Positions 11,529 through 58,109 of a stretch of 64,000 nt of DNA are shown piece by piece. Numbering within the stretch: the first letter of the stretch is position 1; each line of letters begins with the position of its first letter. Position numbers and translations under genes: made by a program. A model generated the notes under the pieces. It saw only the letters and a list, made by a program, of their open reading frames with translations. It had not been told where the DNA came from and made no database searches. The DNA is from Chloroflexota bacterium (GTDB lineage: Bacteria > Chloroflexota > Anaerolineae > JAAEKA01). The stretch lies in contig JAYELL010000025.1 of NCBI GenBank assembly GCA_034717495.1, positions 25,900-89,899 of the forward strand, given 5' to 3'.

Positions 11529-11555
11529 CGACGCCATTCGGGCGTGATAGGATGC

Positions 11556-11593
11556 AAAAGGCTGGGTGAGTCTGAACTCACCCAGCCTTTATG
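11556..11593. terminator. intrinsic terminator after hppA
   Basis: 11-bp stem GGCTGGGTGAG/CTCACCCAGCC, loop tctgaa, followed by TTT; preceded by AAAA. Confidence 0.6.
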
Positions 11594-11612
11594 CTAAGAA
11601 GATCATTATCTG

Positions 11613-12737: not shown

Positions 12738-12793
12738 TCCTGCCATCTACAACCACTTGCTGATCTTGGCTGCGTGGGTGACCTCATGTTAAA

Positions 12794-13288: not shown

Positions 13289-13314
13289 TACCTGATTCCC
13301 GGCCTGATCAGGCC

Positions 13315-13681: not shown

Positions 13682-13751
13682 CTGGAACTGTTTTGACCCA
13701 CTGGCGACCCGAATTTTAGCACAGGGTGGGCGCTAGCACAAAGGAACCGGA

Positions 13752-36817: not shown

Positions 36818-37009
36818 TGAGCAAATTGTAACACAAGGCTTGTGAAATGGGAAGGGTTGAAACCTTGACAAACAGGATGGTTCGATCTAGAATTGCCTCG
36901 CGAGCGAAGGCTCGCATCAGGGTTCCTGATGGCTCTGCCCATCTAGCCACGTTGCAGCCACTGTGAGGGCAATGTCACTGGAAAGTCCTCGTCCCGCATC
37001 GTCCGGTTC

Positions 37010-37859: not shown

Positions 37860-39062
37860 ATGACAACACTTTCCGTCGTCATTCCGGCTCTTAACGAAGA
37901 AGACGGCATTGCGGAAATAATGGCGCGGGTGCTGGCGGTTGGTTCCGACCTGGCGTCCATGGGCGTCGATGATCTGGAGTTGATCGTGGTAGATGACGGT
38001 TCCACCGACCGCACCGCTGAGATCGTGGAATCCACACCGGGCGTAAAGCTTGTGCAGCATCCGGTGAACAAAGGTTATGGTGCCGCTCTGAAATCGGGTT
38101 TTCGTTCAGCCGAAGGTGAGTTTTTGGGCTTTCTTGATGCTGATGGCACCTATCCGCCCGAGTATTTCCCTCAGTTGTGCCAGGTTTTGCTGCAAAATGG
38201 CAACGATATTGTCGTGGGGTCGAGAATGGCTGGCGCTGACAGCGATATGCCAATGACCCGCCGTATCGGCAATACCGTTTTTGCCAGCATGATCAGTATT
38301 CTCAGCCGTCAACGGATCACTGATAGCGCCAGCGGTATGCGGGTTTTCCGTCGAGAGGCCCTTGAGAAGCTCTATCCGCTGCCCGATGGCCTCAACTTCA
38401 CACCGATCATGAGTACTCGCGCCCTTCACGAGGATATTCACATGGTGGAGGTGCCGATTCCCTACAGCGAGCGAGTGGGCGATTCCAAGCTTAGCGTCGT
38501 ACGGGATGGAACTCGCTACGTCCAGACCATTACCTGGACGGCGATGAACTACAATCCTGTGCGAATTTTGGGTGGCCTGGGTCTTATTGCACTGGGCCTG
38601 GCAGGCGTGATCGCACTGGTCACCTTCGTTGCCCGGCTTAGCGGGGTGACTGAGGTCGGTCCTATTGGAGCGTTTGCCCTGTTTTCGATGATGATATTGG
38701 CAATGACCGGAGTCAGTCTCTTCAACCTGGGGGCAACTTTCAATTATCTCGTGTCTCTATTTCACCATCGCCCCGTCAAGCAGGGGTTGTTCGGTAAGCC
38801 GATTTTTGATCCATCCCTGGATCGCCATTTTTGGTGGATGGGATTGCTCTTGGGCGTTGCCGGGCTTTTGCTGGGCGTTGCGAGTCTGATTATGGCGCTC
38901 AACGGCTGGCCCGCGGGCAAGATGTGGTTTTACTACCTTCTCAGCGCTGTACTCTTTCTCTTGGGACTCCAGTTTGTCATGTCGTGGATTCTGATGCGGG
39001 TTCTCGAGGAGTTGAGTGAGCGTGATGCGCTGGCAGCTAAGGACCTTGGTACCAAGTTTTAG
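37860..39062 (+). CDS. GT2 polyprenyl-phosphate sugar synthase (DPM1/GtrB-like) with C-terminal TM anchor
   Basis: LSVVIPALNEE, VVDDGSTDRT, DAD motifs; 4 C-terminal TM helices as in GtrB/ArnC. Confidence 0.8.
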   Translation: MTTLSVVIPALNEEDGIAEIMARVLAVGSDLASMGVDDLELIVVDDGSTDRTAEIVESTPGVKLVQHPVNKGYGAALKSGFRSAEGEFLGFLDADGTYPPEYFPQLCQVLLQNGNDIVVGSRMAGADSDMPMTRRIGNTVFASMISILSRQRITDSASGMRVFRREALEKLYPLPDGLNFTPIMSTRALHEDIHMVEVPIPYSERVGDSKLSVVRDGTRYVQTITWTAMNYNPVRILGGLGLIALGLAGVIALVTFVARLSGVTEVGPIGAFALFSMMILAMTGVSLFNLGATFNYLVSLFHHRPVKQGLFGKPIFDPSLDRHFWWMGLLLGVAGLLLGVASLIMALNGWPAGKMWFYYLLSAVLFLLGLQFVMSWILMRVLEELSERDALAAKDLGTKF

Positions 39063-39105
39063 TGTTTGAGGGGATAACGTCTGAGGTGAAAGTGGAGAGT
39101 TCGAT

Positions 39106-40815
39106 ATGACTGAAAAAGACCAACTGAAGCGCAATCTGGGTACTCGCCGGATGCCTGCACTGCGCCCGTCCAGTTTTCCTGATGCCGGTGCCATCGTGGA
39201 GACACTGACCTCGTCAGCACGTCCCCCGGTCGGTGTAGATATTCTGCTCGTCAACCCACCATCACCCGATGGTGGGATATGGATCCGCAGCCAGCATCGG
39301 GTAGGCCGACGCAGCCGGGAGAACATGATATGGCCTCAGATCGGTCTTGCTCAAATGGCTGCCTTGTTGGCCCCAGACTATACTGTCGAGGTCGTTGATG
39401 CCATCGCGAGCAGGATGTCCTGGCAGGAATTCGAACGTTTGCTGGAAGAAAAATATCCCAGGTATTACCTTACTCAGGTTACGGCGCCGACGTTGCGCAA
39501 CGATATGTATGGTGTCTTTCTGGCCAAATCCTTGGGGTCTCAGACGATTGCGTTCGGAACCCACGTCACGCCCATGACCCTCGAGACCATGCGCCCTTTT
39601 CCTGCGCTGGACTTCATTCTGCGCGGCGAACCGGAGGCCACACTACGCGAACTACTGGATACTTTGCAGGATCAGGAACCCAGTGACCCTCACGTCGCCA
39701 AGATGGTGGAAGACACCAGGTTGGCCAGAGGCACCACGGCACGCAAGACCAGGGACAGCGACCTGGAGCTGCAGTTGTCACCGTTCGCGCCTGCCACACT
39801 TGAACGAATAGGGAAGGCAACGACGGCATCGGCCATGGAGTCGCCGCTTGCCGGTATTCTGGGCCTTGCATGGCGGTATGATAATGAGATCATAATCAAC
39901 CGGGATCGCCCCTTTTTTCCCGATCTGGACGATCTGCCCATGCCACTGCACCATCTGTTGCCATATGAAAAGCAGCATATGCCGATGCTGAAGGGCCCAT
40001 TTACGTTCATCGTGACCAGCCGCGGCTGCCCTGCAGGTTGTAAATATTGCATCAAACATGTGTCGTACCAGAACAGCGTTCGCCTGCGCTCGCCAGAGAA
40101 GCTATACGAAGAACTGGTTATCCTTTCAGAACTGGGGATTCACAATGTTCATATGTACGCCGATCTGTTCACGGTCAGCCGCGAGCAAGTTGTAACTTTG
40201 TGCAATCTCATCATCGAAAATGGCTTGAAGGTGACCTGGACCTGCAACAGCCGTGTCGACTTCGTTGACGCGGAAATGTTGCAACTGATGGGGCAAGCCG
40301 GGTGCTTCATGATTTCCTGGGGAATCGAAAGCGCCAATGAGGAGATATTGAAACGGGCTCGCAAGGGCTATCGCAAGGAACAGGCCTACGATGCACTTGT
40401 GTGGGCCAGAGAAGCCGGAATCAAGAATTGGGGCTATTTCATCATTGGACTGCCCGGTGAAACCGAGGAGTCGATCCAGGAAACGATCACGTACAGCAAA
40501 ATGCTGCCCCTTGACATCGCCCTGTTCCACATTGCGGCACCCTATCCTGGCACCCCTTTCTTCTACGATGTGGTGGAGAATGGTTGGTTTCGACCGGGTA
40601 CCAAGTGGGAGGAGGTCGACATGGATCAGTCTACCGTGCTCGACTATAGTAATCTGTCGGCTGAAAGGCTCGAGTATTGGCAGAAGCGTGCCACGCGGGA
40701 ATGGTCCTTCAGGCCGGGCCCGATGTGGACCTTTGTTAAAGGCCTCAATAGCTGGGAGGGGTTCAAGAGCGCCATGAGTATCGGCGTTCAGACGCTTAAG
40801 TACGTATGGAGCTAG
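39106..40815 (+). CDS. B12-binding domain radical SAM enzyme
   Basis: N-terminal cobalamin-binding-like domain (ILLVNPP...), radical SAM CxxxCxxC (TSRGCPAGCKYC); stop 2 nt before next gene. Confidence 0.8.
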   Translation: MTEKDQLKRNLGTRRMPALRPSSFPDAGAIVETLTSSARPPVGVDILLVNPPSPDGGIWIRSQHRVGRRSRENMIWPQIGLAQMAALLAPDYTVEVVDAIASRMSWQEFERLLEEKYPRYYLTQVTAPTLRNDMYGVFLAKSLGSQTIAFGTHVTPMTLETMRPFPALDFILRGEPEATLRELLDTLQDQEPSDPHVAKMVEDTRLARGTTARKTRDSDLELQLSPFAPATLERIGKATTASAMESPLAGILGLAWRYDNEIIINRDRPFFPDLDDLPMPLHHLLPYEKQHMPMLKGPFTFIVTSRGCPAGCKYCIKHVSYQNSVRLRSPEKLYEELVILSELGIHNVHMYADLFTVSREQVVTLCNLIIENGLKVTWTCNSRVDFVDAEMLQLMGQAGCFMISWGIESANEEILKRARKGYRKEQAYDALVWAREAGIKNWGYFIIGLPGETEESIQETITYSKMLPLDIALFHIAAPYPGTPFFYDVVENGWFRPGTKWEEVDMDQSTVLDYSNLSAERLEYWQKRATREWSFRPGPMWTFVKGLNSWEGFKSAMSIGVQTLKYVWS

Positions 40816-40816
40816 C

Positions 40817-42526
40817 TTGAGTCATCAATACGGCGATCCAACCCTGGGCGATGGCGTTGGGCCACACTCGCCGGTCACTCTCTTTCGGCCACTGCCACTG
40901 CTCATTTCGGGGGGCTTGATCATTAGCGCTTTGATAGGTGTTTGGGCAGCCTACGACCGGGAACAAGCCTGGATGCGGTTCTCGCTCATCTCCATCGGTG
41001 TGGCACTGATGCTCGGCATTGCCTGGATGGGTTGGCGGGGACGAATGGATATACTGGGCATCTTTGGCCTGCTCTGTGCACTGCTTGGGGCAGCAATCGG
41101 TGCCTATTTCCTTCTGACCTTCGACTGGGCGGGCAATCAGGGAAAATTTGCGCCGATCCAAGCGGCAGGCCTCTGGCTTCAGGTCCATCGCCCCGCAATC
41201 CCGGTTCCCGAGGATATCAACGCCAATGTGGCTGGTAGCAGTCTGGCGATTCTTCTTCCACTGGGGGCTGTGGGCCTTTTCTGGGGATGGAGTCGCGACA
41301 AGCGTACCGTGGCGATCATCGCTGCCCTGTCGTTGCTCTTCGGGTTTCTGATTCTATTCCTGACGCAGTCCCGAGCAGCCTGGCTCGGACTGGCAGCCGG
41401 CCTGGCTGTGGCCCTCTACCTGGCAGTGCGACCAGGCCTGGAAAACTTCCCGCGCCGGCGTCTGCTGTTGGACCTGGTTGCTTTGGCAGGGGGGCTTCTT
41501 GTCCTTGTCCTCTTCTGGCTGGTGGCATCGAGCCCCACTCTTGCCGAATCGTTGGGCTCGATCGGCGTTGGTGTCAGCCTCACCAATCGCGCCGAGCTCT
41601 GGCGCGACGGGATGAACCTGGTAGCAGATTACCCCTTCACGGGCAGCGGCCTGGGCAGCACCATGATGGTCTACTCCACCTATGGACGGTTGTTGCATGT
41701 CGGATTTATCACCCATATGCACAATCTGTTCTTGCAGATCACCATCGAGCAGGGAATACCCGGGCTTCTTTTTTTTCTGCTGTTGCTTGTCCTGGCCTGG
41801 TGGAGTCTGCTAAGCGCCTACCGGTCGGGTGAAAACCGCTGCTTCTGCGTACCGGTGGCAGCATCCTTGGTCGCCCTGGTGGTGCAAGGCCTTGTCGACG
41901 TTGGTATTTATGCCAGCTACGCGCTTCCGGTTCTTTTCTTGCCCATCGGGTTTGCACTGGCCCTGGGGCAGCCACCCAGGGTACTCCGGCGAAGCAAGAA
42001 TGTCACCCTGGCACTGACGAGTGTATCGATCATCGTCGTGGCAATGTGTGTAGTGTTGATTGTACCTTCCAGTCAGGCTGCATTGCAAGCCAATCTGGGC
42101 GCCGTTGCCCAAACACAGCGGGAACTCTCCGCTTACAGCTGGCCCGAGTGGCCCATTCAGGATGCCCTCAGGCGCTCACCTGATATTGACCTGTCAGCTG
42201 CAATTGCCCGATACAAAGCAGCACTTGATCGTGATCCAAAGAATGCAACCGGCAACCGGCGACTGGGGCAGATTGAGCTTTCAAGAGGCAGGTATGAAGC
42301 GGCCCGATGGTACCTGGAAGCAGCGTATGCGACATCACCTCGTCAATCGGTGACCCGGCATCTGCTGGGCGAGGTATATGCCATCGATGGCGATCTGGAC
42401 CTGGCAACGTCCTTTCTTCGCAGCGTCGACATCGGCCATGGCCAGTTTCAGACCAGGGTATGGTGGTACGAAACTGTCGGCGAGACTGAAGGAGCTCAGC
42501 GGTTACGGGAAGCTGGCGGGTTTTGA
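40817..42526 (+). CDS. WaaL/O-antigen-ligase-family (Wzy_C) membrane protein with C-terminal TPR domain
   Basis: ~11 TM with LTQSRAAWLGLAAGLAVALYL Wzy_C block; C-terminal soluble TPR-like repeats. Confidence 0.7.
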   Translation: MSHQYGDPTLGDGVGPHSPVTLFRPLPLLISGGLIISALIGVWAAYDREQAWMRFSLISIGVALMLGIAWMGWRGRMDILGIFGLLCALLGAAIGAYFLLTFDWAGNQGKFAPIQAAGLWLQVHRPAIPVPEDINANVAGSSLAILLPLGAVGLFWGWSRDKRTVAIIAALSLLFGFLILFLTQSRAAWLGLAAGLAVALYLAVRPGLENFPRRRLLLDLVALAGGLLVLVLFWLVASSPTLAESLGSIGVGVSLTNRAELWRDGMNLVADYPFTGSGLGSTMMVYSTYGRLLHVGFITHMHNLFLQITIEQGIPGLLFFLLLLVLAWWSLLSAYRSGENRCFCVPVAASLVALVVQGLVDVGIYASYALPVLFLPIGFALALGQPPRVLRRSKNVTLALTSVSIIVVAMCVVLIVPSSQAALQANLGAVAQTQRELSAYSWPEWPIQDALRRSPDIDLSAAIARYKAALDRDPKNATGNRRLGQIELSRGRYEAARWYLEAAYATSPRQSVTRHLLGEVYAIDGDLDLATSFLRSVDIGHGQFQTRVWWYETVGETEGAQRLREAGGF

Positions 42527-42626
42527 CATCGGCATGGCCCTGGAATTTGATCATTTTGGCATTGGAGACTATCATGAGGGTTCGTGATGTATCTAGCATC
42601 TTGTGATGGCGAAAAAACTACTGGCT

Positions 42627-42656
42627 TTCGCAAGCGACCTGGTGGGTTGCTAACAT
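42627..42656 (+). promoter_or_regulatory. candidate promoter TTCGCA-N18-TAACAT abutting sulfotransferase ATG (leaderless start?)
   Basis: -10 hexamer ends 1 nt before ATG 42657; no SD. Confidence 0.3.
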
Positions 42657-43307
42657 ATGAAAAAACTATTCAGAAACCTTAGAAAATCCAAGCCTTCCTT
42701 GCCTGTGATCGTCGTTTCCGGTTTGCCTCGATCTGGAACGTCGATGATGATGAAAATGTTGGAAGCAGGTGGCCTGACGGTGGTAACCGACCAGATTCGT
42801 ACCGCGGACGAGGATAATCCAAAGGGATACTATGAGTTCGAACGGGTAAAACAGCTTGATAAGGGTGATACATCATGGGTATCCGACGCGCAGGGAAAAG
42901 TGGTCAAAGTAATCTCGGCCTTGTTGGAACACCTGCCACCTGACTATGACTACAACGTAATCTTCCTGCAGCGCAGTATCGAGGAAGTTTTGGCATCCCA
43001 GAAGAGAATGCTGGAACGTCGCGGGGAACCAACCGATCGGGTAAGTGATGAGGAGATGGCCCGCTTGTTTGCCAAGCACACTCAGAAAGTGGATCTGTGG
43101 TTAAACAGTCAGCCGAATATCTCAGTTCTCTATGTAGATTACAACGAGGTGGTGAGTAACCCCCATCAATCCGTAGGTCAGGCGAATCGATTCCTGGGCG
43201 GGCATTTGGATGAGCAAGCGATGATCTCAGCTGTCGATCCTCAACTCTATCGAAATCGGGCAAACCTGAACCAAATCTCAACTCGAGAAGACTCATTGTC
43301 AAAATGA
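42657..43307 (+). CDS. sulfotransferase-family protein (Sulfotransfer_3-like)
   Basis: 5'-PSB-like VVSGLPRSGTSMM near N-terminus, later RSIEEV.. 3'-PB-like block; soluble 216 aa; stop overlaps next start (ATGA). Confidence 0.6.
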   Translation: MKKLFRNLRKSKPSLPVIVVSGLPRSGTSMMMKMLEAGGLTVVTDQIRTADEDNPKGYYEFERVKQLDKGDTSWVSDAQGKVVKVISALLEHLPPDYDYNVIFLQRSIEEVLASQKRMLERRGEPTDRVSDEEMARLFAKHTQKVDLWLNSQPNISVLYVDYNEVVSNPHQSVGQANRFLGGHLDEQAMISAVDPQLYRNRANLNQISTREDSLSK

Positions 43308-43696
43308 ACCAACAGCTTCTGTCGTCATTGTGGCTGATCCTGGTGTCCACGATAGCTGGGGTAGCCGGTCAGGTTTCGCTCAAGCTGGGCATGAGCCAGC
43401 CGGGCGCTGAGGAGACGGTCTCAGAGGGTGTGTTGTCTCTGATAGCTTTGATTCTGCGCACTCCCCTGGTGTGGCTCGGACTGATGTTTTACGGGATAGG
43501 AGCGCTTGCCTGGATCGCCGTCTTGTCTCGTCTGGATCTTAGCGTGGCATACCCCTTTCTTGCCTTAAACTTTGTGTTGATTACTATCATATCCCGCCTG
43601 TTCCTTGGCGAGACTGTGCCCCTCCTTCGATGGGCAGGGATCGGTGTAATCGTAGTTGGTATTCTTCTGGTGGCGCGCAGCACTACGGCGTCATAA
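43304..43696 (+). CDS. 4-TM SMR/EamA-like flippase subunit (ArnE/ArnF/GtrA-like)
   Basis: 130 aa, 4 TM, EamA-like signature (LALNFVLITIISRLFLGE). Confidence 0.6.
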   Translation: MNQQLLSSLWLILVSTIAGVAGQVSLKLGMSQPGAEETVSEGVLSLIALILRTPLVWLGLMFYGIGALAWIAVLSRLDLSVAYPFLALNFVLITIISRLFLGETVPLLRWAGIGVIVVGILLVARSTTAS

Positions 43697-45233
43697 AAAC
43701 AAAGTGCACGAATCGCTTAGAAAACGCCACAACCGCTCCAAAGCTGGTACTTTGGTTTCCCTTTGTCTGCTGCTGGCAATTGCCGTGCCCTGGCTGGCTG
43801 GCACTGCCAAGGTATCGGCTGACCAACCAGTGATCTGGTCCAAACCGGTCAACTTATCCCAATCGGACGAGAGCTCGGTTCACCCGGCCATTGTCGCCGA
43901 CAGCATGGGGAATATCCACCTCTTTTGGAGTGAAGAGGTGGGTGGGGAACCGATGCTGCAGGACGAAATGGCCCGGCCTGGTAATACGATCCTCTATACT
44001 CGCTGGGACGGCCAATCATGGATCGAACCAAGGGATGTTCTGTACGTGCGGGGTGAATACCTTGGTGACTATGTTTCGGTCGCAATCGATGACAACAACC
44101 GGCTCCATGCAGTGTGGACGGGACTGGATAACATTTACTACAGTTCGGCGCCGGCGGCTGTAGCTGAGACAGCCCAGTCGTGGAGCAAACCGGTGGTGGT
44201 TGGAACCGGCAGCGCCCGCTCCGCCTTCGAGTCTGCTGTTGCTGTTGATTCACAAGGTGTTATTCATGTTGCCTATGGCGCCCGACGCGATGTGCCGGGA
44301 GTCAACTACGTGCAATCGAGCAACGGCGGCGAGACCTGGTCGGCGCCAGTGACATTGTCACTTCCCCTGGATCGTTTGGAGAGTGGCTATTCGCAGGTGC
44401 GCTTGGTGGTAGACAGTGCAGACCGAATCCATGCTACCTGGACAACCTTCCAGAGACAAGGCTTTGGCCAAGGTGTCTATCATAGTCGCAGCACAGATGG
44501 TGGTCTTACATGGAATACGCCCTACCGGCTCGCTTATCGAGAGGATGACGATATTTTCGTGGAGTGGCCCTATCTCACCGAGTTTGCCGACCAGGAACTG
44601 CGTGTGATCTTCACCGATGGTGATGGCAAGGGCCGGTTGCAGCGCATATCGACCGACGGGGGCGAAACCTGGGGTGAACCAACGGTCATCCTGACCGAAT
44701 TGGAAGGCATTAACGGCTATATCATTTCTCTGCTCGATGCCGCCGAGCAACCCCACTTGATCGCAAACATGCGTACCCGGTCTGACGGCACCGTCGGCCT
44801 GTTTTATGCCCCCGGCGCCGGGGGAGGCTGGCAACCGACTGTTCCGATCGCAACCGATCTACCCTACGGCCCCTCATCACACTATCCTGCAGCCGCCGTT
44901 CGCCTGGGCAATGAGATACACATCGTGTGGACCCAGTTGCGACGGGGTGAGATATGGCATATGAAGGGGGAGGTCTCCGGGGTTGAACCTCTTCCGGTGA
45001 TGGAGAGGCTTCCGCCACAAGAAGTTGTGCAGCCATCGCCTACGATTAGCATCTCTACACCAACCCCAGAACCGCTGGAAACGGTGGCACCATCCCGGGA
45101 GCGGGGCGTTGCCGGGCCGACGCCCGCGCCCGTTGCACCGCCATCGCCGCTCGGCGCAGTGCTACCCGGTATAACACTTTCGCTGCTCCTGGTGCTTGGT
45201 GTGATCGTTTGGAAGGGTGTTCGCGCCAGATAG
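43656..45233 (+). CDS. BNR/Asp-box repeat (sialidase-fold) exported protein with C-terminal TM anchor
   Basis: Asp-box repeats SNGGETWSAP, STDGGLTWNTP, STDGGETWGEP; signal peptide; C-terminal hydrophobic anchor; true start likely downstream of 43696 (non-ATG). Confidence 0.65.
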   Translation: MVFFWWRAALRRHKNKVHESLRKRHNRSKAGTLVSLCLLLAIAVPWLAGTAKVSADQPVIWSKPVNLSQSDESSVHPAIVADSMGNIHLFWSEEVGGEPMLQDEMARPGNTILYTRWDGQSWIEPRDVLYVRGEYLGDYVSVAIDDNNRLHAVWTGLDNIYYSSAPAAVAETAQSWSKPVVVGTGSARSAFESAVAVDSQGVIHVAYGARRDVPGVNYVQSSNGGETWSAPVTLSLPLDRLESGYSQVRLVVDSADRIHATWTTFQRQGFGQGVYHSRSTDGGLTWNTPYRLAYREDDDIFVEWPYLTEFADQELRVIFTDGDGKGRLQRISTDGGETWGEPTVILTELEGINGYIISLLDAAEQPHLIANMRTRSDGTVGLFYAPGAGGGWQPTVPIATDLPYGPSSHYPAAAVRLGNEIHIVWTQLRRGEIWHMKGEVSGVEPLPVMERLPPQEVVQPSPTISISTPTPEPLETVAPSRERGVAGPTPAPVAPPSPLGAVLPGITLSLLLVLGVIVWKGVRAR

Positions 45234-45251
45234 CGCGTTGAGGCATTACGG

Positions 45252-46031
45252 ATGCATCATTTCACTGAGCTGTTTGGGTATCGTGACCTGCTCTGGCTAT
45301 GGACCTTGCGAGAAGTCAGGGTACGGTATAAACAATCTTTCCTGGGCGTTGCCTGGGCGATCATTCAACCGCTGGCCCTGACTGTCGTCTTTACCGTCGT
45401 TTTTTCTTTTCTGCTTAAGATCGATACCGGGGATGTGCCCTATCCGGTTTTTGCCTATACTGGACTGGTCCCCTGGACGTTCTTTGCAACCTCGCTGGCT
45501 TTCGGGATTCCCAGCCTTGTCAACAATATGAATCTGGTCACAAAAATCTACTTTCCCCGGGAGATACTGCCCCTTGCCAGTATCGGAGCCGCCTTTGTAG
45601 ATTTTCTGATCGCCTGCGCGATTCTGGCCGGGTTGATGTTGATTTATCGGGTCTTTCCAGGAATCGAGGCCTTGTGGCTCGGCCCGCTGCTCTTGCTGCA
45701 GATCATTCTGAGTATCGGTGTGATTTTGCTGGGCGCTGCGCTCATTGTGTTCTTCCGCGATATTCGTTTCGTCGTACCCTTATTGACGCAGGTCTGGATG
45801 TATGCTACGCCAATCATCTACCCGGTGGATTTCGTACCTGAACAGTTGCGACCCTTCTATTTTCTGAATCCAATGGCCGGTATCATCGACGGATATCGAC
45901 GGGTGCTGATTTATGGTGAGGCGCCCAATATGCAAGCGCTGACATTGGCCACGATAGTGTCCGTGATACTGTTTGTGGTAGGATACCTGGTTTTCAAGCG
46001 AACAGAACCGGTATTTGCGGATATCATATGA
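45252..46031 (+). CDS. wzm: ABC-2 type polysaccharide exporter permease
   Basis: ABC-2 membrane protein (YKQSFLGVAWAIIQP...). Confidence 0.85.
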   Translation: MHHFTELFGYRDLLWLWTLREVRVRYKQSFLGVAWAIIQPLALTVVFTVVFSFLLKIDTGDVPYPVFAYTGLVPWTFFATSLAFGIPSLVNNMNLVTKIYFPREILPLASIGAAFVDFLIACAILAGLMLIYRVFPGIEALWLGPLLLLQIILSIGVILLGAALIVFFRDIRFVVPLLTQVWMYATPIIYPVDFVPEQLRPFYFLNPMAGIIDGYRRVLIYGEAPNMQALTLATIVSVILFVVGYLVFKRTEPVFADII

Positions 46032-47275
46032 CCGATCAACTTCCATTGGGGTCTGTAATTTGTGATAAGGTTTCCAAACGCTATCGACTGGGTGCGTTTG
46101 GATCATTGCGCGGCACGGTGTCATCCCTTTTCGAGCGGCGGAGTGAGGAAGAAGAGGCACAGCGTACTCTGTGGGCATTGCAGGATGTTAGCTTTCGGTT
46201 GCAGCCTGGCGAGTCACTGGGCTTGCTGGGTCCCAATGGTGCCGGAAAGACGACCACCCTGAAGCTCCTGTCGAAGATTACCAGGCCAACATCGGGCAAC
46301 ATTACACTGCTTGGGCGCTCCTCATCCTTAATCGAGTTGGGGGCGGGATTCCATCCGGAACTTACTGGCAAGGAGAATATCTTTCTGAATGGAGCGATTC
46401 TGGGATTGAGTCGCCACGAGATTCAACGGCGTCTTGATGAGATTATTGCATTCTCTGAATTGGAAAGGTTCATCGATACCCCTGTCAAACGTTACTCTTC
46501 AGGCATGTATGTCCGTCTTGGCTTTGCCGTGGCTGCCTACGTCGAGCCGAATGTGCTTCTGGTTGATGAAGTGTTGGCAGTGGGAGATATTAGCTTTCGG
46601 CAGCGCTGCATCAAACGAATGAAGGAGTTGCAGGAATCGGGCACGACAGTTATCTTTGTCTCTCACAACATGCATCTGGTTCGCAACATGTGTCAACGCT
46701 CGTTGCTCCTGGTTCATGGACAGATCCAGTCAGAGGGTCCCACAGATGATGTGATCGCAGACTATGAACGGCTAATCATGGGAACTGCCGAATTGGCGAA
46801 TGACAAGTCCCAGGACAAGGACCAGTCCCAGGTGTTGTCCGATGTCATTGTGCTGAATGTCGACGTAGCTCCCCTGACACCAAACGATAGGAACCTCATC
46901 GATTCGCATCAGTCTGGTGTAGTGACAATTCGTTACCGTACCCAGGCGCCCCGGGAAATCGGGCGTATCGATGTCCGCGTATTACGCGACGATGGCACAC
47001 TGTGTAGTTCACTTGATGCCAGGGCAGCCGCCAAAAACGATCCTCGATTCCGCCACCTGGATCGGGAAGGTTCGTTTGTCTTGACCTTTTCACCCATGCA
47101 GTTGACTTCAGGCACCTATTTCGTGCTCGTTCGTATTACCGACTCATCCGATGCCCTGGTTATCGCATCCGGACAATCCAAGTTATTTCAGGCCTACGCA
47201 GGCGACCTGCCTTCGCCGCCGGGGGTTTTTGTTCCCTCAGTTGCATGGGACGTCGGGAAAGAGAATCGAAGTTAG
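46028..47275 (+). CDS. wzt: polysaccharide exporter ATP-binding protein with C-terminal extension (Wzt)
   Basis: NBD (GPNGAGKTT, YSSGMYVRLGFA, LLVDEVLAVGD) plus ~170-aa beta-rich C-terminal extension. Confidence 0.8.
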   Translation: MTDQLPLGSVICDKVSKRYRLGAFGSLRGTVSSLFERRSEEEEAQRTLWALQDVSFRLQPGESLGLLGPNGAGKTTTLKLLSKITRPTSGNITLLGRSSSLIELGAGFHPELTGKENIFLNGAILGLSRHEIQRRLDEIIAFSELERFIDTPVKRYSSGMYVRLGFAVAAYVEPNVLLVDEVLAVGDISFRQRCIKRMKELQESGTTVIFVSHNMHLVRNMCQRSLLLVHGQIQSEGPTDDVIADYERLIMGTAELANDKSQDKDQSQVLSDVIVLNVDVAPLTPNDRNLIDSHQSGVVTIRYRTQAPREIGRIDVRVLRDDGTLCSSLDARAAAKNDPRFRHLDREGSFVLTFSPMQLTSGTYFVLVRITDSSDALVIASGQSKLFQAYAGDLPSPPGVFVPSVAWDVGKENRS

Positions 47276-47372
47276 TTGAAAATCCACAGCTTCAGGGGAA
47301 AGACTTTTCGTGACCCACGCAGGGTTTCGCGGAGTCTCGAAATCGGACAAACAGTTCCCGGGTGAGAATCGC

Positions 47373-49109: not shown

Positions 49110-49120
49110 GAAGATGAGTC

Positions 49121-50320: not shown

Positions 50321-50359
50321 CGATTGAGTTCGTTGCTGTTGTCGATTGAGAAGAAATCA

Positions 50360-51613: not shown

Positions 51614-51641
51614 AGACCTGGTCAGGAGGCCACCGGAAGTC

Positions 51642-52895
51642 GTGCGTATCCTTTTCCTGAGCAATTACTATCCACCCCTGGAAGTGGGCGGATATGAGCA
51701 GTTGTGCCGGGATGTCGCTGAACGCCTTGCCGGGCGTGGCCATACAATTGCGGTTTTGACGTCGACTTACGGCCTGGGAAAAGAGCCGGTCGGACAGGAT
51801 GTGGATTACGATGTGCATCGGTTGCTGAGGTTACAGCCCGATTTCGACCGCCGGCTTGGTGCCACGCTGCAGTTCTTTTTGACGCGTCAACCGGATGAAC
51901 AATACGACCTGGCATGCTTCAGGAAGGTTATTGCCGAATTCGATCCCGTTGTGATCTCGATCTGGAACATGCAAAGGTTGCCCCGGTCCCTGGCGCTGGA
52001 GGCGGAGGCACTCCCGGATACAGGCGTGGCCTATTGGGTGGCCAGTTCTACCCCGGCCGAACCCGACGAGTTCTGGCGGTATTGGGACCTGGTTCCCCCC
52101 AACCCGTGGAAGGCCCGCTTCAAAGGGTTGTTTAGCGATCGGGCCTTGCGCACTATGCAAGCCGAAGGCCATCCCCTGCAGCCCGAGATGAAACACGTGG
52201 GCGTTGTCAGTAATTTCATGCGCGAGAGAGGAATCGACGACGGAACATTGCCTTCCTGGACGAAGGTCATCTATAACGGCGTGGAGATCGATTCCTTTTT
52301 TCAACCAGTGCAGCCGTTAGGCGAGGGGCCAATGTGTTTCCTGCAGGCCGGCCGTGTCAGTGATGACAAAGGTGTGCATACAGCCATTGAGGCGGTCGGA
52401 TTGGCGGTTCAGAAATCGGGCCTCGGAAACGTCCGCCTTGTTATTGCAGGATCTGGTCCGGCGGATTACCGGCAGCGACTGGACGAGTTGGTAAAGCGGT
52501 ACCAGATAGAGGAACAAGTCGTTTTCACTGGCTGGTTGCCGCGGGAACAGATGCCGGCGCTTATGGCTGAAAGCCATGTGCTGCTGTTGCCGACTACTCA
52601 TCAGGAGCCCTTTGCCCGGGTAGTCCTGGAAGCAATGGCCAGCGGGCTGGCTGTTGTCGCCACGCCTACTGGCGGAACCGAAGAGATCGTCCAGCATGGC
52701 AAAACGGGCCTGCTGTTTCCGGTCGGTGACAGCAAAAAACTCACTGACCAAATTGGAGGCCTGGTTGAAAACGACGATTTCAGAATTCAACTGGCTGAAG
52801 CAGGCCAACATCTGGTCGCTCAGCGGTATAGCCTGGAGCATATGGTCGACGAGATCGAGAATCTGCTGAATCTGGCGACCAGTGACGGATCATAA
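51642..52895 (+). CDS. GT4 (GT-B) glycosyltransferase
   Basis: GTG start after AGGAGG; VRILFLSNYYPPLEVGGYE; EPFARVVLEAMASGLAVVATPTGG. Confidence 0.8.
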   Translation: MRILFLSNYYPPLEVGGYEQLCRDVAERLAGRGHTIAVLTSTYGLGKEPVGQDVDYDVHRLLRLQPDFDRRLGATLQFFLTRQPDEQYDLACFRKVIAEFDPVVISIWNMQRLPRSLALEAEALPDTGVAYWVASSTPAEPDEFWRYWDLVPPNPWKARFKGLFSDRALRTMQAEGHPLQPEMKHVGVVSNFMRERGIDDGTLPSWTKVIYNGVEIDSFFQPVQPLGEGPMCFLQAGRVSDDKGVHTAIEAVGLAVQKSGLGNVRLVIAGSGPADYRQRLDELVKRYQIEEQVVFTGWLPREQMPALMAESHVLLLPTTHQEPFARVVLEAMASGLAVVATPTGGTEEIVQHGKTGLLFPVGDSKKLTDQIGGLVENDDFRIQLAEAGQHLVAQRYSLEHMVDEIENLLNLATSDGS

Positions 52896-52976
52896 TGTCA
52901 CCATGTCAATATGTCAAAATGATATCTTGGCATCATGACATTGTAGCATCATGACATTGTGACATTCTTGCAACTC
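52893..52976. repeat. array of direct repeats (gcatcatgacattgt x2) and 6 TGTCA/TGACA half-sites in intergenic region
   Basis: cataatgtcaccatgtcaatatgtcaaaatga...gcatcatgacattgtagcatcatgacattgtgacattc read directly. Confidence 0.6.
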
Positions 52977-54197
52977 ATGCGCATCTTATTCCTGGCAACG
53001 TGGTTCCCGTTCCCACCTGATAATGGCTCAAAAATCAGGGACTTCAACCTGTTAAGAGAATTAGGAAGGACTCACGATGTGACATTGGTGGCCTTCGCTT
53101 TTGACACCGCCACTCCCGATCGAGCAGAGCCATTGAATGAGTTTTGCACACAGATTGAGGTGGTCCCGATCGATCCGTTCGATCGGGGAGAGCAGGCTGA
53201 AATTTTCAGGTTTTTGTCCCCCGCGCCCATTGTCGATAAACCGGTGCCCGAGATGGAAGCGCTGGTGGAAAAAATCCTCCGGGACAACACCTTTGATGCT
53301 GTAATTGCGTCTACAACAGTGATGGCAACCTATGCCCTCCAGGCCAGGAATGCCTGCAAGATTCTACAGGAGCACAATTTTCACACCATCTGGACATTGG
53401 ACCGGTACCAAAATGAAACAACTTTGCCTGGCAAAATGCAGGCCTGGGTGAGTCTGCAAAAACGGCGCCGCTATGACGACAAGCTGTTCTCCCAGTTTGA
53501 TCTCTGTGCCATGGTATCGGAGAGGGATCGGGATGCCACGCTCAGGATGTTGCCTCGCTTCGACGGTCCTGTGGCCGTGGTTCCCAATGGTGTAGATTGT
53601 CAGCACAATCATCCCGGGCTGGCCGGGGTGGTACCCGATAGCCTGATTTACAACGGAGCTCTCACCTATTACACCAATCATGATGCCATGGCTTTCTTTC
53701 TCTCGGAAGTCTTCCCCCTGGTGCGCCAACAGGTGCCACAGGCACAGGTGACCATCACGGGATCGACCAAGGGTGTTGATGTTGACTCCCTGCCATTGGG
53801 CGGCGGCGTCCATCTCAGCGGGTATGTCGACGATATTCGGCCATTGGTAGCGGCAGCCAGGGTCTGTATTGTGCCCTTGCGGCTAGGTGGTGGATCCAGG
53901 CTGAAGGTGTTGGAAGCGATGGCACTTGGAACGCCAGTGGTAGCCACAAAAAAGGGTGCAGAAGGCCTGGACGTCGTGGACGGCAAGCATATCCTGGTGG
54001 CCGACAGTCCGTTGGAATTCGCGTCGGCCACCATCAGGTTGCTGCAAGAGGACGCGTTGAGAGATGAATTGTCCGCCAACGCACGCCAGCTGGTCGAGCA
54101 GCAGTATGACTGGTCCAGGATAGGGCAGCAATTCGTATCGTTGGTTGAACAGACTACTCGCGAGTGCCAGGACCCTGAGCGGGACAAGTTAGTATGA
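52977..54197 (+). CDS. GT4 (GT-B) glycosyltransferase
   Basis: MRILFLATWFPFPPDNGSKIR; ...GGGSRLKVLEAMALGTPVVATKKG. Confidence 0.8.
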   Translation: MRILFLATWFPFPPDNGSKIRDFNLLRELGRTHDVTLVAFAFDTATPDRAEPLNEFCTQIEVVPIDPFDRGEQAEIFRFLSPAPIVDKPVPEMEALVEKILRDNTFDAVIASTTVMATYALQARNACKILQEHNFHTIWTLDRYQNETTLPGKMQAWVSLQKRRRYDDKLFSQFDLCAMVSERDRDATLRMLPRFDGPVAVVPNGVDCQHNHPGLAGVVPDSLIYNGALTYYTNHDAMAFFLSEVFPLVRQQVPQAQVTITGSTKGVDVDSLPLGGGVHLSGYVDDIRPLVAAARVCIVPLRLGGGSRLKVLEAMALGTPVVATKKGAEGLDVVDGKHILVADSPLEFASATIRLLQEDALRDELSANARQLVEQQYDWSRIGQQFVSLVEQTTRECQDPERDKLV

Positions 54198-55627
54198 ATC
54201 TATCCAACCGTGACGTGCGGCAATTTACAGCCAATCGAAACTTGCTGATCATCATGGTAATCGTCGGCGTATTGGCGTCCGCCTGGTTCCTGGGTCAGCG
54301 AGCGTCAATACTATGGCTTGGGCTGTTGGTCGTTGGAATCGGCGCGACCCTTGTGTTGAAGCAGCCATTGATCGGCCTGCTGGCCCTGGTGGTCATAGCT
54401 CTTGTGGGACCCATAAAAATCAACACAGGGACGACCGTACAGATAAACCCAACTACTTTGGTTATCCCTGCTCTCCTGGTTTTGTGGGTCCTGGTAATGA
54501 TCCTGCAAAAGGATGTCCGATTGGTCCCTTCGGCGGTTAACAAGCCGCTGATAGCTTTCGTAATTGCCGGTCTGATCTCATTATTGGTGGGAAGTGTTCT
54601 GTGGAATCCGCTGGTACCCCGCTCGGGTAACTTTCTATTGGTGCAGATGGCCCAGTGGGCGATCTTCGCTTTCTCGGCCGGAGCGTTTCTGTTGACTGCG
54701 AATCTGGTGAAGGACGAGTTGTGGCTCCAGCGTCTGACCTTTGCTTTTCTGGTAGTGAGCGGCGGCCTGGCCATTCTCAGTCTCATTCCGGTCACACGAA
54801 GTCTGGTCTATGACATTTCGACGATTGCATTCATTCGGGCCCCTTTCTGGATGTTGATCGCCGCTTTGGCCGGTGGACAACTTCTTTTCAATGGCAAGCT
54901 GTCCGCTGGATGGCGCATTTTTCTGATAGTCTCACTGCTTGCGGTGGTAAATTATGCGTTCTTTCTGTCGCGCGACTCGGCATCGACCTGGGGCGGCGTG
55001 GGAACCGCCTTTGCAGTGCTGATTTGGTTTCGTTTTCCGCGTGTGCGCTGGCTCCTGGTGCTCTTTGTACTTGCCCTGGCAGCCACCGGCGCTCTTTTCC
55101 CTGCCCTATGGGATTTTGCCGGTGGGGATACAGAGTGGAAAACCACAGGCGGCTCGCGGATTGCATTGATCGAGCGGGTGATGCAAGTGTCAATGTTCAA
55201 TCCAGTTACAGGTTTGGGACCTGCCGCGTATCGCAAATATGCCGCAATGGAGCCGCTGAAATACGGTAACGCCTTCTGGGTGGCGCCTCAGGTGAACTCT
55301 CACAACAACTTTGTCGATCTCTTTTCCCATGTTGGCATCGTTGGCCTGGTACTTTTTGCCTGGTTTGTTTGGGAGATGAGCAAAATCGGTGGTAAGCTGC
55401 GCAGCTGTTACCTGGAGGGTTTTTCGGCAGGCTACGTAAATGGCACGCTGGCGGCCGGTGTTGGGGCACTGGTTTTGATGATGTTCGCGGACTGGATTCT
55501 GCCGTTCGTCTACAATATAGGGTTTCATGGTTTTCAGGCGAGTGTCCTTGTCTGGCTGTTCCTGGGAGGGCTGGTGGCTCTTGAGCAAATGATGCCGGCG
55601 CCTGAAGCTTGCCCGCCGGGGGCATAG
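54194..55627 (+). CDS. Wzy_C-family membrane protein (O-antigen polymerase/ligase-like)
   Basis: ~12 TM, central large loop; start overlaps preceding stop. Confidence 0.6.
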   Translation: MNLSNRDVRQFTANRNLLIIMVIVGVLASAWFLGQRASILWLGLLVVGIGATLVLKQPLIGLLALVVIALVGPIKINTGTTVQINPTTLVIPALLVLWVLVMILQKDVRLVPSAVNKPLIAFVIAGLISLLVGSVLWNPLVPRSGNFLLVQMAQWAIFAFSAGAFLLTANLVKDELWLQRLTFAFLVVSGGLAILSLIPVTRSLVYDISTIAFIRAPFWMLIAALAGGQLLFNGKLSAGWRIFLIVSLLAVVNYAFFLSRDSASTWGGVGTAFAVLIWFRFPRVRWLLVLFVLALAATGALFPALWDFAGGDTEWKTTGGSRIALIERVMQVSMFNPVTGLGPAAYRKYAAMEPLKYGNAFWVAPQVNSHNNFVDLFSHVGIVGLVLFAWFVWEMSKIGGKLRSCYLEGFSAGYVNGTLAAGVGALVLMMFADWILPFVYNIGFHGFQASVLVWLFLGGLVALEQMMPAPEACPPGA

Positions 55628-55676
55628 GTTTGGTTTGCGATTTCCACTGTCTGCATGACACGTCCGTTGGTCGTGT

Positions 55677-56648
55677 TTGCCGCAAGGATTCTCCCTGGTG
55701 ACCTCAAAAAAAGATCTTTCTGTCATCATTGTGAACTGGAATACCTGTGATTTTCTGGCTCAGTGTCTGGAATCAGTACCTGGCGGCCAGCTGTCAGAAA
55801 CCGGGTTGGGCCAGCATGTTGAGGTTGGTACCCGTAACCTCGATATTGAGGTCATCGTCGTTGACAATGCTTCCAGTGATGGCAGCGCGGAGATGGTGCG
55901 CCGGAGGTTTCCACAGGTTAAGCTGATTGAAAACAGCCGGAACATCGGATTCGCCATGGCCAACAACCAGGCTATCGCTTATAGCAGAGGGCGTTATGTT
56001 CTCCTGCTGAACAGCGATACGGTGGTGCATTCGGGCGCGTTGCAGCGAATGGTCGCTTTCATGGAAGATCATTCCAGGGCTGGGGCAGTCGGTCCTCGAT
56101 TGCTGAACGAAGATGGAACGCTTCAACCCTCGGTACACCCGATGATGACGCCGGCGCGGGAGTTCTGGCGTTTGATCTTTCTGGAGAAACTCTGGCCCCT
56201 TGCACGCTATCAACAGGAGCAGTGGGATACAGAAACGCCTCGTCTCGTCGATGTCATAAAGGGCGCCTGCTTGATGGTGCGTCGCCGTGCCCTGGAGCAA
56301 ACCGGCCTGTTGGATGACCGGTACTTTATGTATACTGAGGAAGTTGACCTTTGTTATCGACTGGCACGCGATGGCTGGAATCTTTGTTACGTGCCGGCAG
56401 CAGTGGTAACCCATTTCGGTGAGGCCAGTAGCCGTCAGATGGCCGAGGATATGTATATTCAACTCTATCGCAGCAAACTTCAGTTTTTCCGCAAATTCGG
56501 TGGAGCTGGCCGAGCGCGCCGGTTCAAGGTCCTCGTGAGCCTTGCCTATGCACCGCGAGCCATGGTGGCGACAACCAGTGGCCTGATAAGCGAGCCATGG
56601 CGCACCCGTGGCAAAACATACCGTCGATTGCTTCGAGAACTTGATTGA
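55677..56648 (+). CDS. GT2 glycosyltransferase (rhamnosyltransferase-like)
   Basis: SVIIVNWNT, VIVVDNASSDGS, NSDTVV motifs. Confidence 0.8.
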   Translation: MPQGFSLVTSKKDLSVIIVNWNTCDFLAQCLESVPGGQLSETGLGQHVEVGTRNLDIEVIVVDNASSDGSAEMVRRRFPQVKLIENSRNIGFAMANNQAIAYSRGRYVLLLNSDTVVHSGALQRMVAFMEDHSRAGAVGPRLLNEDGTLQPSVHPMMTPAREFWRLIFLEKLWPLARYQQEQWDTETPRLVDVIKGACLMVRRRALEQTGLLDDRYFMYTEEVDLCYRLARDGWNLCYVPAAVVTHFGEASSRQMAEDMYIQLYRSKLQFFRKFGGAGRARRFKVLVSLAYAPRAMVATTSGLISEPWRTRGKTYRRLLRELD

Positions 56649-56654
56649 TCCTTT

Positions 56655-58109
56655 ATGAAACAACGACTGAATAGCCAGAATGGAAAAGTAAAAGCGCTGG
56701 CACCCCTGCTTCTCATCATTATTCTCGCAGTATTGTTGAGGGTTGCTGTCGCCTTCTACCTTGGAAACAGCATCGAAGAGGTGCGCGGTGGGACCTTCGA
56801 CCAGATATCCTACGATGCGTTGGCATTGCGAGTGATGGACGGCCACGGTTTCAGCTTTGCCACTGACTCATGGCCGTATGCCAAGGCAAATCAGCCAACT
56901 GCCTTCTGGTCCTATCTCTTCACCCTGTTTCTGGCCGGAATTTACAGCCTGGCCGGCCATGAGCCTCTGGTCGCGCGAATCATCCAGGCTATCCTGGTGG
57001 GCATTGTGATGCCCTGGTTGGTATATCGTATCGGTGCGCGGGTATTTGATCGACGCGTGGGCCTCATAGCGGCCCTGATTGCTGCCATCTACTTCTATTT
57101 CATCAACTATGCAGCCTCGTTGATGACGGAGTCGCTCTATATCGTCGGAATACTGTGGACTATCGATGTGGCAATGCGTTTGGCTATCCAGGCAGAAGGG
57201 TGCAGTGCCGGGGAGTTGACCTGTTCACAAAGGCACATGCTGCGTCTGGGGCTCGAGTTGGGTCTGGCGATGGCTTTCACACTCCTGATGCGTCAAGTGA
57301 TCGTGATTTTCCTTCCAGTGCTCGGCTTGTGGCTACTCTGGATTGCATGGCGACGAAATCAACTCAAGGGCACCATCCTGGCGCTGGCGGTTGCAGCCTT
57401 TGTAACAGCGCTGGCACTTTTGCCTTTCGTGATCCGGAACTACCGGGCCTTTGGTCAGGTAAGCATGCCAAATACCAATGTTGGTTTCAATTTCTTCTGG
57501 AGCAACCACCCCATCTACGGCACAACCTTTGTGCCCGTCATCTATGAGTCCAGCGGTATCACCTACCCGGAATTGATTCCTCCCGAGCTGCGCCATCTCA
57601 ACGAAGCGGAGCTGGACCGTGCCTTGTTGGCCCGTGGAATACAGATCGTGCTGGAGGATCCGACACGCTATCTACAGCTCTCCTTGAGCCGCTTCCCAGT
57701 ATACTTCCTTTTCTGGCCTACCGGGACCTCGTCGACGCTGAGCAACGCGGCCCGGGTTCTCAGTTTTGGCATTTTTCTGCCCTTTATGATTTACGGTTTG
57801 ATCACTGCCTTCTTGCGGGCGAAAATCGGCAAATCGGAACAAGTCGCAGACACCCAGGATCCCGTTTCGATGGCCTGTGCTCATCTTCATTGCGAATTTC
57901 TTGCGCTGCTTGGCGCTTACATGATAGTCTATACGGCCATCCATATTGCGTCGTGGGCAAACGTACGCTACCGGTTACCGGTAGATGTGTTTCTCATCAT
58001 TTTCGCCGCCTATGCCATCGATGACCTCCTGTGGAGAGTGTTGAAGATCGGTTCGGGAAAGCAAAAGCGGCAGAATCCTGACCTTGTTTTTCCGATGGAA
58101 GGCTCATGA
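56655..58109 (+). CDS. GT-C fold glycosyltransferase (GT39/GT83 ArnT/PMT-like)
   Basis: Multi-TM with conserved N-terminal loop (NSIEEVRGGTFDQISYDALALRVMDGHGF). Confidence 0.7.
   Translation: MKQRLNSQNGKVKALAPLLLIIILAVLLRVAVAFYLGNSIEEVRGGTFDQISYDALALRVMDGHGFSFATDSWPYAKANQPTAFWSYLFTLFLAGIYSLAGHEPLVARIIQAILVGIVMPWLVYRIGARVFDRRVGLIAALIAAIYFYFINYAASLMTESLYIVGILWTIDVAMRLAIQAEGCSAGELTCSQRHMLRLGLELGLAMAFTLLMRQVIVIFLPVLGLWLLWIAWRRNQLKGTILALAVAAFVTALALLPFVIRNYRAFGQVSMPNTNVGFNFFWSNHPIYGTTFVPVIYESSGITYPELIPPELRHLNEAELDRALLARGIQIVLEDPTRYLQLSLSRFPVYFLFWPTGTSSTLSNAARVLSFGIFLPFMIYGLITAFLRAKIGKSEQVADTQDPVSMACAHLHCEFLALLGAYMIVYTAIHIASWANVRYRLPVDVFLIIFAAYAIDDLLWRVLKIGSGKQKRQNPDLVFPMEGS

Follow-up and report, generated by a model that had tools for sequence, protein, structure and literature searches.

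In a 64-kb stretch of DNA from an uncultured Chloroflexota bacterium (termed the window in the following), 21 genes run in one direction at 37010-62843, separated by short gaps or joined by ATGA overlaps in the ORF map, and these include a nearly invariant group of three neighbors: an O-acetyltransferase gene (37010..37798, + strand), the gene of a polyprenyl-phosphate glycosyltransferase (PPGT; 37860..39062, +) and a radical SAM enzyme gene (rSAM; 39106..40815, +). An original prediction had grouped the PPGT with a small four-helix membrane protein (43304..43696, +) and a glycosyltransferase of the GT-C type (56655..58109, +) as a dispersed Gtr/Arn-like module, by which a sugar is loaded onto a lipid, flipped and added to an acceptor on the outer face of the membrane. 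These three genes do lie in the one co-directional cluster, as had been claimed, and it could be established to which family and fold each protein belongs, how the genes are ordered and how far this order is conserved. A three-component-type decoration route, in which the lipid-linked sugar is probably tailored before it is flipped, is considered the best reading of the region and is held with about even confidence. Proteobacteria, Firmicutes and Actinobacteria all have well-established three-component glycosylation, of which the flagged genes by themselves would be one more example. The novelty is in the conserved rSAM and acetyltransferase partners, which the earlier list of three components left out together with a second GT-C of the window, and not in the flagged genes themselves. 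Chloroflexota are an abundant, poorly cultured phylum, and the surface polymers encoded by this locus are so far undescribed.

ORFs of the window were scanned with Pfam and NCBIfam models. For the comparison of related regions, PPGT orthologs provided 80 genome loci and GT-C orthologs 80 metagenome loci; individual neighbourhoods of four-helix and GT-C orthologs were added, and all 21 window proteins were mapped onto these regions (given below by L numbers). A metagenome scan with the single GT-C sequence found no relatives; its repeat with a GT-C alignment gave the loci. Locus flanks were limited to 10 kb. On the long-read contigs of L001, L004 and L005 genes are split (a GT2 as 289 + 75 aa, ThrRS in pieces), most likely by assembly frameshifts, so that the absence of a gene from contigs of this kind needs care. 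Searching the PDB by sequence yielded no usable match for either the GT-C or the four-helix protein, and structure prediction followed by Foldseek was therefore used for these two.

The PPGT is a GT2 of the ArnC/DPM1/GtrB type (Pfam Glycos_transf_2, 2.6e-35) and the sole one of its type in the 64-kb window. Against the ArnC structure 9hwj it aligns end to end (8.8e-22; residues 4-319 vs 10-317 of 322), with D93-A94-D95..P99-P100-E101 lining up with the ArnC motif DADLQNPPE, with E204-R205..G207..S209-K210 (ER-x-G-x-SK) likewise lining up with 9hwj, and with helices 240-258 and 269-287 on both ArnC membrane helices. Further matches of the PDB search were the Pyrococcus DPM synthase 5mlz and the Synechocystis GtrB 5ekp. 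Helix prediction gave four hydrophobic membrane segments at the C-terminus, two of them ArnC-like and two extra, which confirms the GtrB/DPM1-like GT2 with a C-terminal membrane anchor that had been proposed for 37860-39062. Orthologs (54–82% identity, at least 80 species-level genomes) keep the two extra helices, the alignment extending from residue 1 to about 397, and since they align from residue 1, the start at 37860 is supported. No Pfam match to GtrA (PF04138) at E ≤ 0.01 was obtained in the C-terminus. Two other GT2 proteins of the cluster were tried and rejected: the soluble one (55677-56648) as the true PPGT, being rhamnosyltransferase/EpsD-like and without a membrane helix, and the membrane GT2 (58852-60063) as a source of lipid-linked donor, being EpsU-like over its full length with synthase-type architecture.

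In 71 of 75 loci the acetyltransferase gene immediately precedes the PPGT ortholog, in 60 of 67 the rSAM gene immediately follows it, and this near-invariant pairing spans at least 80 species-level Anaerolineae genomes and also occurs in cyanobacterial assemblies. The acetyltransferase is a left-handed beta-helix O-acetyltransferase of the maltose-acetyltransferase/WcaF type (Pfam Hexapep, 2.5e-18; PDB 3ect, 3.6e-21; NCBIfam maltose O-acetyltransferase, 6.7e-20, and WcaF family, 8.3e-20), with one N-terminal hydrophobic segment. The rSAM (Pfam Radical_SAM, 1.6e-27) carries an N-terminal domain that is weakly B12-binding-like (Pfam B12-binding, 0.013). By sequence it is closest to two sugar-modifying non-methylases: in the PDB to AprD4 (6fd2, 3.3e-25), a sugar diol dehydratase (PMC5461906), and among NCBIfam models to HpnJ (5.4e-57; 194 bits and thus below the cut-off of 578), which carries out a ring contraction on lipid-bound glucosamine (PMC9204698). 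If the rSAM acts on a lipid-linked sugar, this would be new chemistry in glycan donor biosynthesis. Full-text literature searches found no paper joining a radical SAM enzyme with a three-component-type system, an absence that is not proof.

Genes of nucleotide-sugar metabolism were noted beside the trio. In many Anaerolineales loci, of which L019 (4451-8581) shows the pattern, a distant paralog of the polyprenyl glycosylphosphotransferase (PGT) lies upstream of acetyltransferase, PPGT and rSAM; in loci of this type the PGT paralog is followed by an NAD-dependent epimerase/dehydratase, a GHMP kinase and a SIS-domain isomerase, which resemble a heptose-type nucleotide-sugar pathway, a possible source of the sugar for the PPGT. 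A UDP-GlcNAc 2-epimerase is encoded beside the four-helix gene in L051 (16065-17201) and in the same operon in L147 (13255-14418), a linkage that hints at ManNAc-type chemistry.

The four-helix protein (130 aa; Pfam EamA, 29.3 bits vs threshold 28.2) gave its best NCBIfam matches with ArnE (1.2e-12) and ArnF (2.9e-12), followed by QacG at 1.2e-3, and on these grounds is a candidate flippase for a polyprenyl-phosphate sugar. The gene is single, with no adjacent paralog pair, in the window and in all related loci. The family holds G22, Q23 and K27 invariant, with the consensus WLILLS...GVAGQTAIKLG for the first helix (residues 3-30). No Pfam match to GtrA (PF04138) at E ≤ 0.01 was found for 43304-43696, and the PF04138 model does pick up a GT2-GtrA fusion in L043; of the earlier description of this protein as ArnE/GtrA-like, the ArnE part thus stood and the GtrA part did not.

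The third flagged protein (56655..58109) belongs to the PMT_2 family of GT-C_A glycosyltransferases (Pfam PMT_2, 31.5 bits vs threshold 26.1); an NCBI entry of 100% identity is named 'glycosyltransferase family 39 protein', and most of its orthologs carry PF13231. Its AlphaFold model (pLDDT 84, pTM 0.89) retrieved only GT-C enzymes among all 16 Foldseek matches at E ≤ 0.001, and likewise down to E of about 0.7 (AglB, STT3, ArnT, DPY19, ALG3/9/12, Pmt4, Emb and Aft among them), with unrelated folds appearing lower in the ranking at probabilities near 0.1. The predicted GT-C is therefore retained, and it did not group with unrelated families. In 35 orthologs D49 is invariant and D54 nearly so; in the model D49 is part of the first outer loop, where helix 48-61 begins after helix 2-36, and a cytoplasmic N-terminus is predicted because this end is rich in Lys/Arg. 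The model contains no large soluble domain and ends about 13 residues past the last helix. Lipid-linked donors are used throughout the GT-C class, and its small GT-C_A members that lack soluble domains take polyprenyl-monophosphate sugars. There was no NCBIfam match to ArnT and one of only 1.7e-3 to archaeo_STT3, and no Pfam match to MIR or STT3; a role as N-oligosaccharyltransferase, which the AglB/STT3 matches at the top of the Foldseek ranking had brought up, was rejected, the C-terminal domain of AglB/STT3 being missing. Three tandem GT-C paralogs that are 40%, 26% and 57% identical to the GT-C of the window were observed in L094 and L095 (5882-11290).

Linkage of the four-helix gene to the PPGT recurs in four gene orders. 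In the window, L005-7 and L010-12 the order is rSAM, Wzy_C-TPR, sulfotransferase, four-helix; in L072 and L147 it is four-helix, acetyltransferase, PPGT, rSAM; in L023, L043, L082 and L084 acetyltransferase, PPGT, rSAM, four-helix; and in L051 and L059 rSAM, an unknown gene, a GT2 paralog and four-helix, the last gene there directly following a PPGT paralog without a membrane helix. The sulfotransferase/four-helix pair is kept in L005-L007 and L010-L012. As this linkage is repeated, independent and comes in four orders, it would be hard to explain otherwise than by a shared function of the four-helix and PPGT genes. The GT-C belongs to a conserved block of its own, made up of Wzy_C, GT2, GT-C, GT4 and PGT: Wzy_C is found upstream of GT-C orthologs in 19/23 loci, the soluble GT2 is present in 19/23 and PGT lies downstream in 11/16, while a methyltransferase adjoins the GT-C ortholog in 7/51 loci; it is seen at this place in L001, L002, L087 and L097. 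The PPGT block and the GT-C block share one co-directional cluster in three divergent genomes, namely those of the window, of contig_17743 and of L147. On contig_17743 (990,922 bp), of which L062 and L002 are adjacent pieces, PPGT and GT-C are about 21 kb apart in the order of the window; in L147 they are about 6 kb apart, with the block order reversed.

A compact form of the system was found in cyanobacteria. In L043 (Aerosakkonema sp. BLCC-F183, NZ_JBHFNU010000044.1, 1462-16049) two systems stand side by side: the plus strand encodes acetyltransferase, PPGT, rSAM, four-helix protein, a PMT_2 protein (520 aa, 1.3e-8) and a GT2, with the PMT_2 gene directly after the four-helix gene and of a subfamily other than that of the GT-C at 56655; the minus strand encodes the GT2-GtrA fusion (404 aa) and a PMT_2 protein of 594 aa. 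In L078 and L082 a PMT_2-like gene, just under threshold, lies next to the acetyltransferase gene in divergent orientation, and in L084 the corresponding place is taken by a similar 504-aa ORF with 7 helices. The trio of acetyltransferase, PPGT and rSAM is present on the further cyanobacterial contigs of L023, L031, L058, L078, L082 and L084, through gene transfer or by binning error. Aerosakkonema sp. BLCC-F183 is possibly cultured, and its compact system might offer an experimental entry point.

Taken as a route, these genes would act as follows. A surface heteropolysaccharide would be assembled in the cytoplasm on polyprenyl diphosphate by the PGT at 61353 and several GT4/GT2 enzymes, with pyruvyl, sulfo and methyl tailoring, and would leave via Wzm/Wzt. 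In a parallel branch, the PPGT at 37860 would transfer one sugar from a nucleotide sugar to polyprenyl phosphate at the inner face of the membrane; the rSAM at 39106 and the acetyltransferase at 37010 would probably tailor the lipid-linked sugar, in parallel to the action of ArnD on the ArnC product; the ArnE/F-like protein at 43304, probably as a homodimer, would flip it to the outer face; and a GT-C, for which 56655 and possibly 13752 are candidates, would move it to the exported polymer or to a surface protein. We infer the lipid acceptor, the sugar identity and each of these steps up to the use of the donor by the GT-C and the final acceptor. A common route for the three flagged genes is given about an even chance; the link rests on the two blocks sharing a cluster in three genomes, on the PMT_2 gene of L043 and on the donors used by the GT-C class. 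The further reading as a conserved system of five parts, in which rSAM and acetyltransferase would remodel the polyprenyl-phosphate sugar at the inner face of the membrane (e.g. through acetylation combined with deoxygenation or a rearrangement of the ring), an ArnE/F-like homodimer would take over the flipping, and installation would fall to one or several GT-C enzymes, is put forward tentatively. If it is true, a radical SAM enzyme would for the first time be tailoring a lipid-linked glycosyl donor, and Anaerolineae as well as some filamentous cyanobacteria would be predicted to bear an unusual sugar on their surface.

Several findings weigh against a single route for the flagged genes. Of 44 fully flanked loci, 6 have the four-helix gene no more than 10 kb from the PPGT (14/82 overall) and none has a GT-C of the window type there (0/44); conversely, the PPGT is near the GT-C in 1/9 fully flanked GT-C loci. 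A four-helix ortholog of 65% identity stands alone between ribosomal-protein and phosphate-regulon genes in L003 and L004, and none was found in the entire 43-kb syntenic cluster of contig_17743. With these counts and the lone four-helix genes, the three flagged genes do not appear as a conserved cassette, and the proposed check of their co-occurrence in related loci did not show a dedicated module; some linkage did emerge, as the blocks occur together in three genomes and other PMT_2 genes accompany the system in L043, L078 and L082. The GT-C could be a core assembly enzyme, its own partners being Wzy_C, the soluble GT2, GT4 and PGT. Its top Foldseek matches are oligosaccharyltransferases (AglB, 1.4e-5), with ArnT behind (2e-3). 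Finally, all NCBIfam matches of the PPGT (AglJ 127.5 against a cut-off of 325, DPhHxTase 110.9 against 375, ArnC 91.8 against 529, PgfS 90.3 against 500) and of the four-helix protein (48 and 47 bits against 92 and 99 for ArnE and ArnF) are below the equivalog cut-offs, so that no substrate can be assigned to either. Of the proposed decoration by a lipid-linked sugar on top of the ABC-dependent pathway, the protein families and the Wzm/Wzt context hold, while a dedicated conserved module is not shown.

These same counts favor an alternative that is taken seriously, if judged rather unlikely: the PPGT block may feed another enzyme of the outer face, either the Wzy_C-TPR protein at 40817 or the second GT-C at 13752-15416, while the GT-C at 56655 would receive its donor from a PPGT elsewhere, and the flagged genes would not form one system. 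Within 10 kb downstream of the PPGT, Wzy_C-TPR was found in 27/54 loci and a BNR protein in 26/54, and in L005 the block from acetyltransferase to four-helix gene is intact and is then followed by MetRS, with no GT-C. The Wzy_C-TPR protein (40817..42526, +; Pfam Wzy_C 9.9e-24 plus TPR), a membrane protein with 11 predicted helices and C-terminal TPR, carries an O-antigen-ligase-like domain, by which it is a candidate for an alternative outer-face transferase or ligase. However, characterised Wzy_C enzymes (WaaL, PglL, Wzy) take polyprenyl-diphosphate donors and not the monophosphate sugars of the PPGT type; PPGT, rSAM and four-helix genes are paired with PMT_2 genes in the compact cyanobacterial loci L043, L078 and L082 (and with the similar ORF in L084); and the GT-C and PPGT blocks share a cluster in three genomes.

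For the single route, the identity of the presumed flippase is the second point at which a different reading was weighed. The four-helix protein could be a general small-molecule exporter of the SMR/DMT kind, placed there by chance, with flipping done by, for example, the two extra PPGT helices, whose conservation in orthologs would fit such a role. Its predicted fold is SMR-like, the best Foldseek matches being EmrE and Gdx (TM-scores of 0.67-0.75 on target length and 0.55-0.60 on query length), its homologs are labelled 'multidrug transporter EmrE-like' in source records, and the lone orthologs of L003 and L004 sit among housekeeping genes. EmrE has an essential membrane-embedded glutamate, Glu14, in its first helix, whereas the first helix of the four-helix protein is free of Asp and Glu and thus has no acidic residue at this place. 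ArnE/ArnF, moreover, are the best match in 31/31 family members, with E-values to about 1e-15, against about 5e-4 in only one member each for EmrE and MdtJ, and the gene is tied to PPGT-type genes independently in four orders, including the helix-free paralog of L051/L059. We regard a generic drug exporter as improbable, and the ArnE/ArnF-like assignment is preferred.

It is likewise improbable that acetyltransferase, PPGT and rSAM make a terminal membrane glycolipid in the manner of hopanoid HpnI/HpnK/HpnJ instead of a GT-C donor: the HpnJ match of the rSAM and the conservation of the trio as a unit irrespective of any GT-C speak for it, but the PPGT has its end-to-end matches in ArnC, DPM synthase and GtrB, HpnI is not among its 21 NCBIfam matches at E ≤ 0.01 (the hopanoid HpnI/HpnJ reading of GT2 plus rSAM being rejected on this account), the trio sits among Wzm/Wzt and Wzy_C genes in clusters for polysaccharide export, and PMT_2 and flippase-like genes adjoin it in several loci.

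Every equivalog cut-off being missed, the window system is not an ortholog of Arn, Gtr or Gml, and it was set beside these and other known systems part by part. With the Arn pathway (ArnC, ArnD, ArnE/ArnF, ArnT) it shares a GT2 with the ArnC motifs and membrane hairpin, a small four-helix protein that best matches ArnE and ArnF, a GT-C of the PMT_2 type and, by inference, an enzyme that could tailor the lipid-linked sugar before flipping, as ArnD does. Where Arn has the deformylase ArnD, the window offers a radical SAM enzyme and an O-acetyltransferase as candidates for tailoring. The Arn genes, in contrast, form a single operon with an ArnE/ArnF pair, whereas one flippase-like gene is present here, the window genes are dispersed over 20 kb with scores far below the equivalog cut-offs, and lipid A cannot be assumed as the acceptor. 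The sequence PPGT, flippase and GT-C acting on an exported polymer is shared with Gtr (GtrA/GtrB/Gtr*) and with Klebsiella Gml, the latter also having an ABC-transporter-dependent polymer (PMC11127046); such systems on ABC-exported polymers, including Gml, are thus documented, and a tailoring of the lipid-linked sugar before the flip has been postulated in the epimerisation of undP-Ribf to other pentofuranoses (PMC11127046). Different from Gtr and Gml, the flippase candidate of the window is ArnE/F-like and without a PF04138 match, no compact cassette is formed, and the PPGT has four membrane helices instead of two. The archaeal type III DPMS of Pyrococcus furiosus (5mlz) has a similar GT2 domain (3.8e-21) and four C-terminal helices as well, but the match is limited to the catalytic residues 4-212, and the window PPGT has no Pfam GtrA_DPMS_TM match. 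HpnJ and AprD4, nearest to the rSAM in NCBIfam and PDB, respectively, both modify a sugar ring without methylation. The HpnI/HpnK/HpnJ system differs in that the partner GT2 of the window is ArnC-like and not HpnI-like and no hopanoid genes are present in the window, and AprD4 in that no AprD3-like reductase was identified here.

The second GT39/PMT_2-like GT-C, encoded on the opposite strand (13752..15416, −; NCBIfam Agl23, 2.7e-8), shows PDEG after its first helix; the 521-aa form is named 'glycosyltransferase family 39 protein' at NCBI, and more distant homologs carry PF13231, PF02366 or PF11028. A profile comparison of the two GT-C proteins of the window was negative, and they are thus not close paralogs. 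The gene overlaps that of a third Wzy_C protein (15292..16791, −; Pfam Wzy_C, 9.1e-22), and the pair is kept in L166 and L167 among RsfS, NDK, deacetylase and H+-pyrophosphatase genes, with neither PPGT nor flippase nearby. Wzy_C followed by GT-C is a recurrent gene pair, occurring also at 54194/56655 and in L002 (with a 1-nt overlap), and may reflect two enzymes acting in one conserved step on the outer face of the membrane. The second GT-C may use the same lipid-linked donor as the first, and several GT-C enzymes may be supplied by a single PPGT and a single flippase, which would explain that the four-helix gene is often found outside the clusters.

The remaining genes of the cluster are those of polymer assembly and export. 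Its order begins with O-acetyltransferase, PPGT, rSAM, Wzy_C-TPR, sulfotransferase and four-helix protein, continues with the BNR protein, Wzm, Wzt, a pyruvyltransferase-GT2 fusion, a GT2-TPR protein and three GT4, and ends with the second Wzy_C, the soluble GT2, the PMT_2 GT-C, a methyltransferase, the membrane GT2, a GT4 and the PGT. Wzm (ABC-2 permease) and Wzt (ATPase) (45252..47275, +; Pfam ABC2_membrane 3.7e-17, ABC_tran 1.4e-22 and, weakly, Wzt_C 1.2e-3) together are assigned as a polymer exporter from their domains; no MOP/Wzx flippase model matched among the larger window ORFs scanned, so that Wzm/Wzt is the only exporter identified. The PGT (61353..62843, +; NCBIfam EPS_sugtrans, 3.4e-108, above cut-off) is the predicted initiating enzyme of the main polymer. 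The second Wzy_C membrane protein (54194..55627, +) was recognized by Pfam Wzy_C at 4e-10, and the soluble, rhamnosyltransferase/EpsD-like GT2 follows at 55677..56648 (+). An ATGA overlap couples the SAM-dependent methyltransferase (58106..58855, +; Pfam Methyltransf_11, 1.1e-16) to the GT-C at 56655. The membrane GT2 (403 aa; 58852-60063, +) matches EpsU over its full length at 1.7e-56; its mechanical ORF, 58627-60063, opens at a TTG inside the methyltransferase gene, and the gene probably starts with the ATG at 58852, in an ATGA over the methyltransferase stop. The sulfotransferase (42657..43307, +; Pfam Sulfotransfer_3, 1.6e-9) has an ATGA overlap with the four-helix gene, by which the two would be translationally coupled.

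The BNR protein (43656-45233, +) is a sialidase-like beta-propeller with membrane helices at both the N- and the C-terminus; near the PPGT block such proteins frequently come in 2-3 copies (L017-L077), and glycan processing or a role as acceptor glycoprotein are candidate options. Promoter and terminator scans gave chance-level results and the search for tRNA genes found none; one strong sigma-70-like site was located by the promoter scan at 36865-36893, upstream of the acetyltransferase gene. A SulP-STAS-rhodanese sulfate permease (34400-36574, −) adjoins the cluster, and together with the sulfotransferase at 42657 and the pyruvyltransferase at 47310 it suggests a sulfated and pyruvylated polymer.

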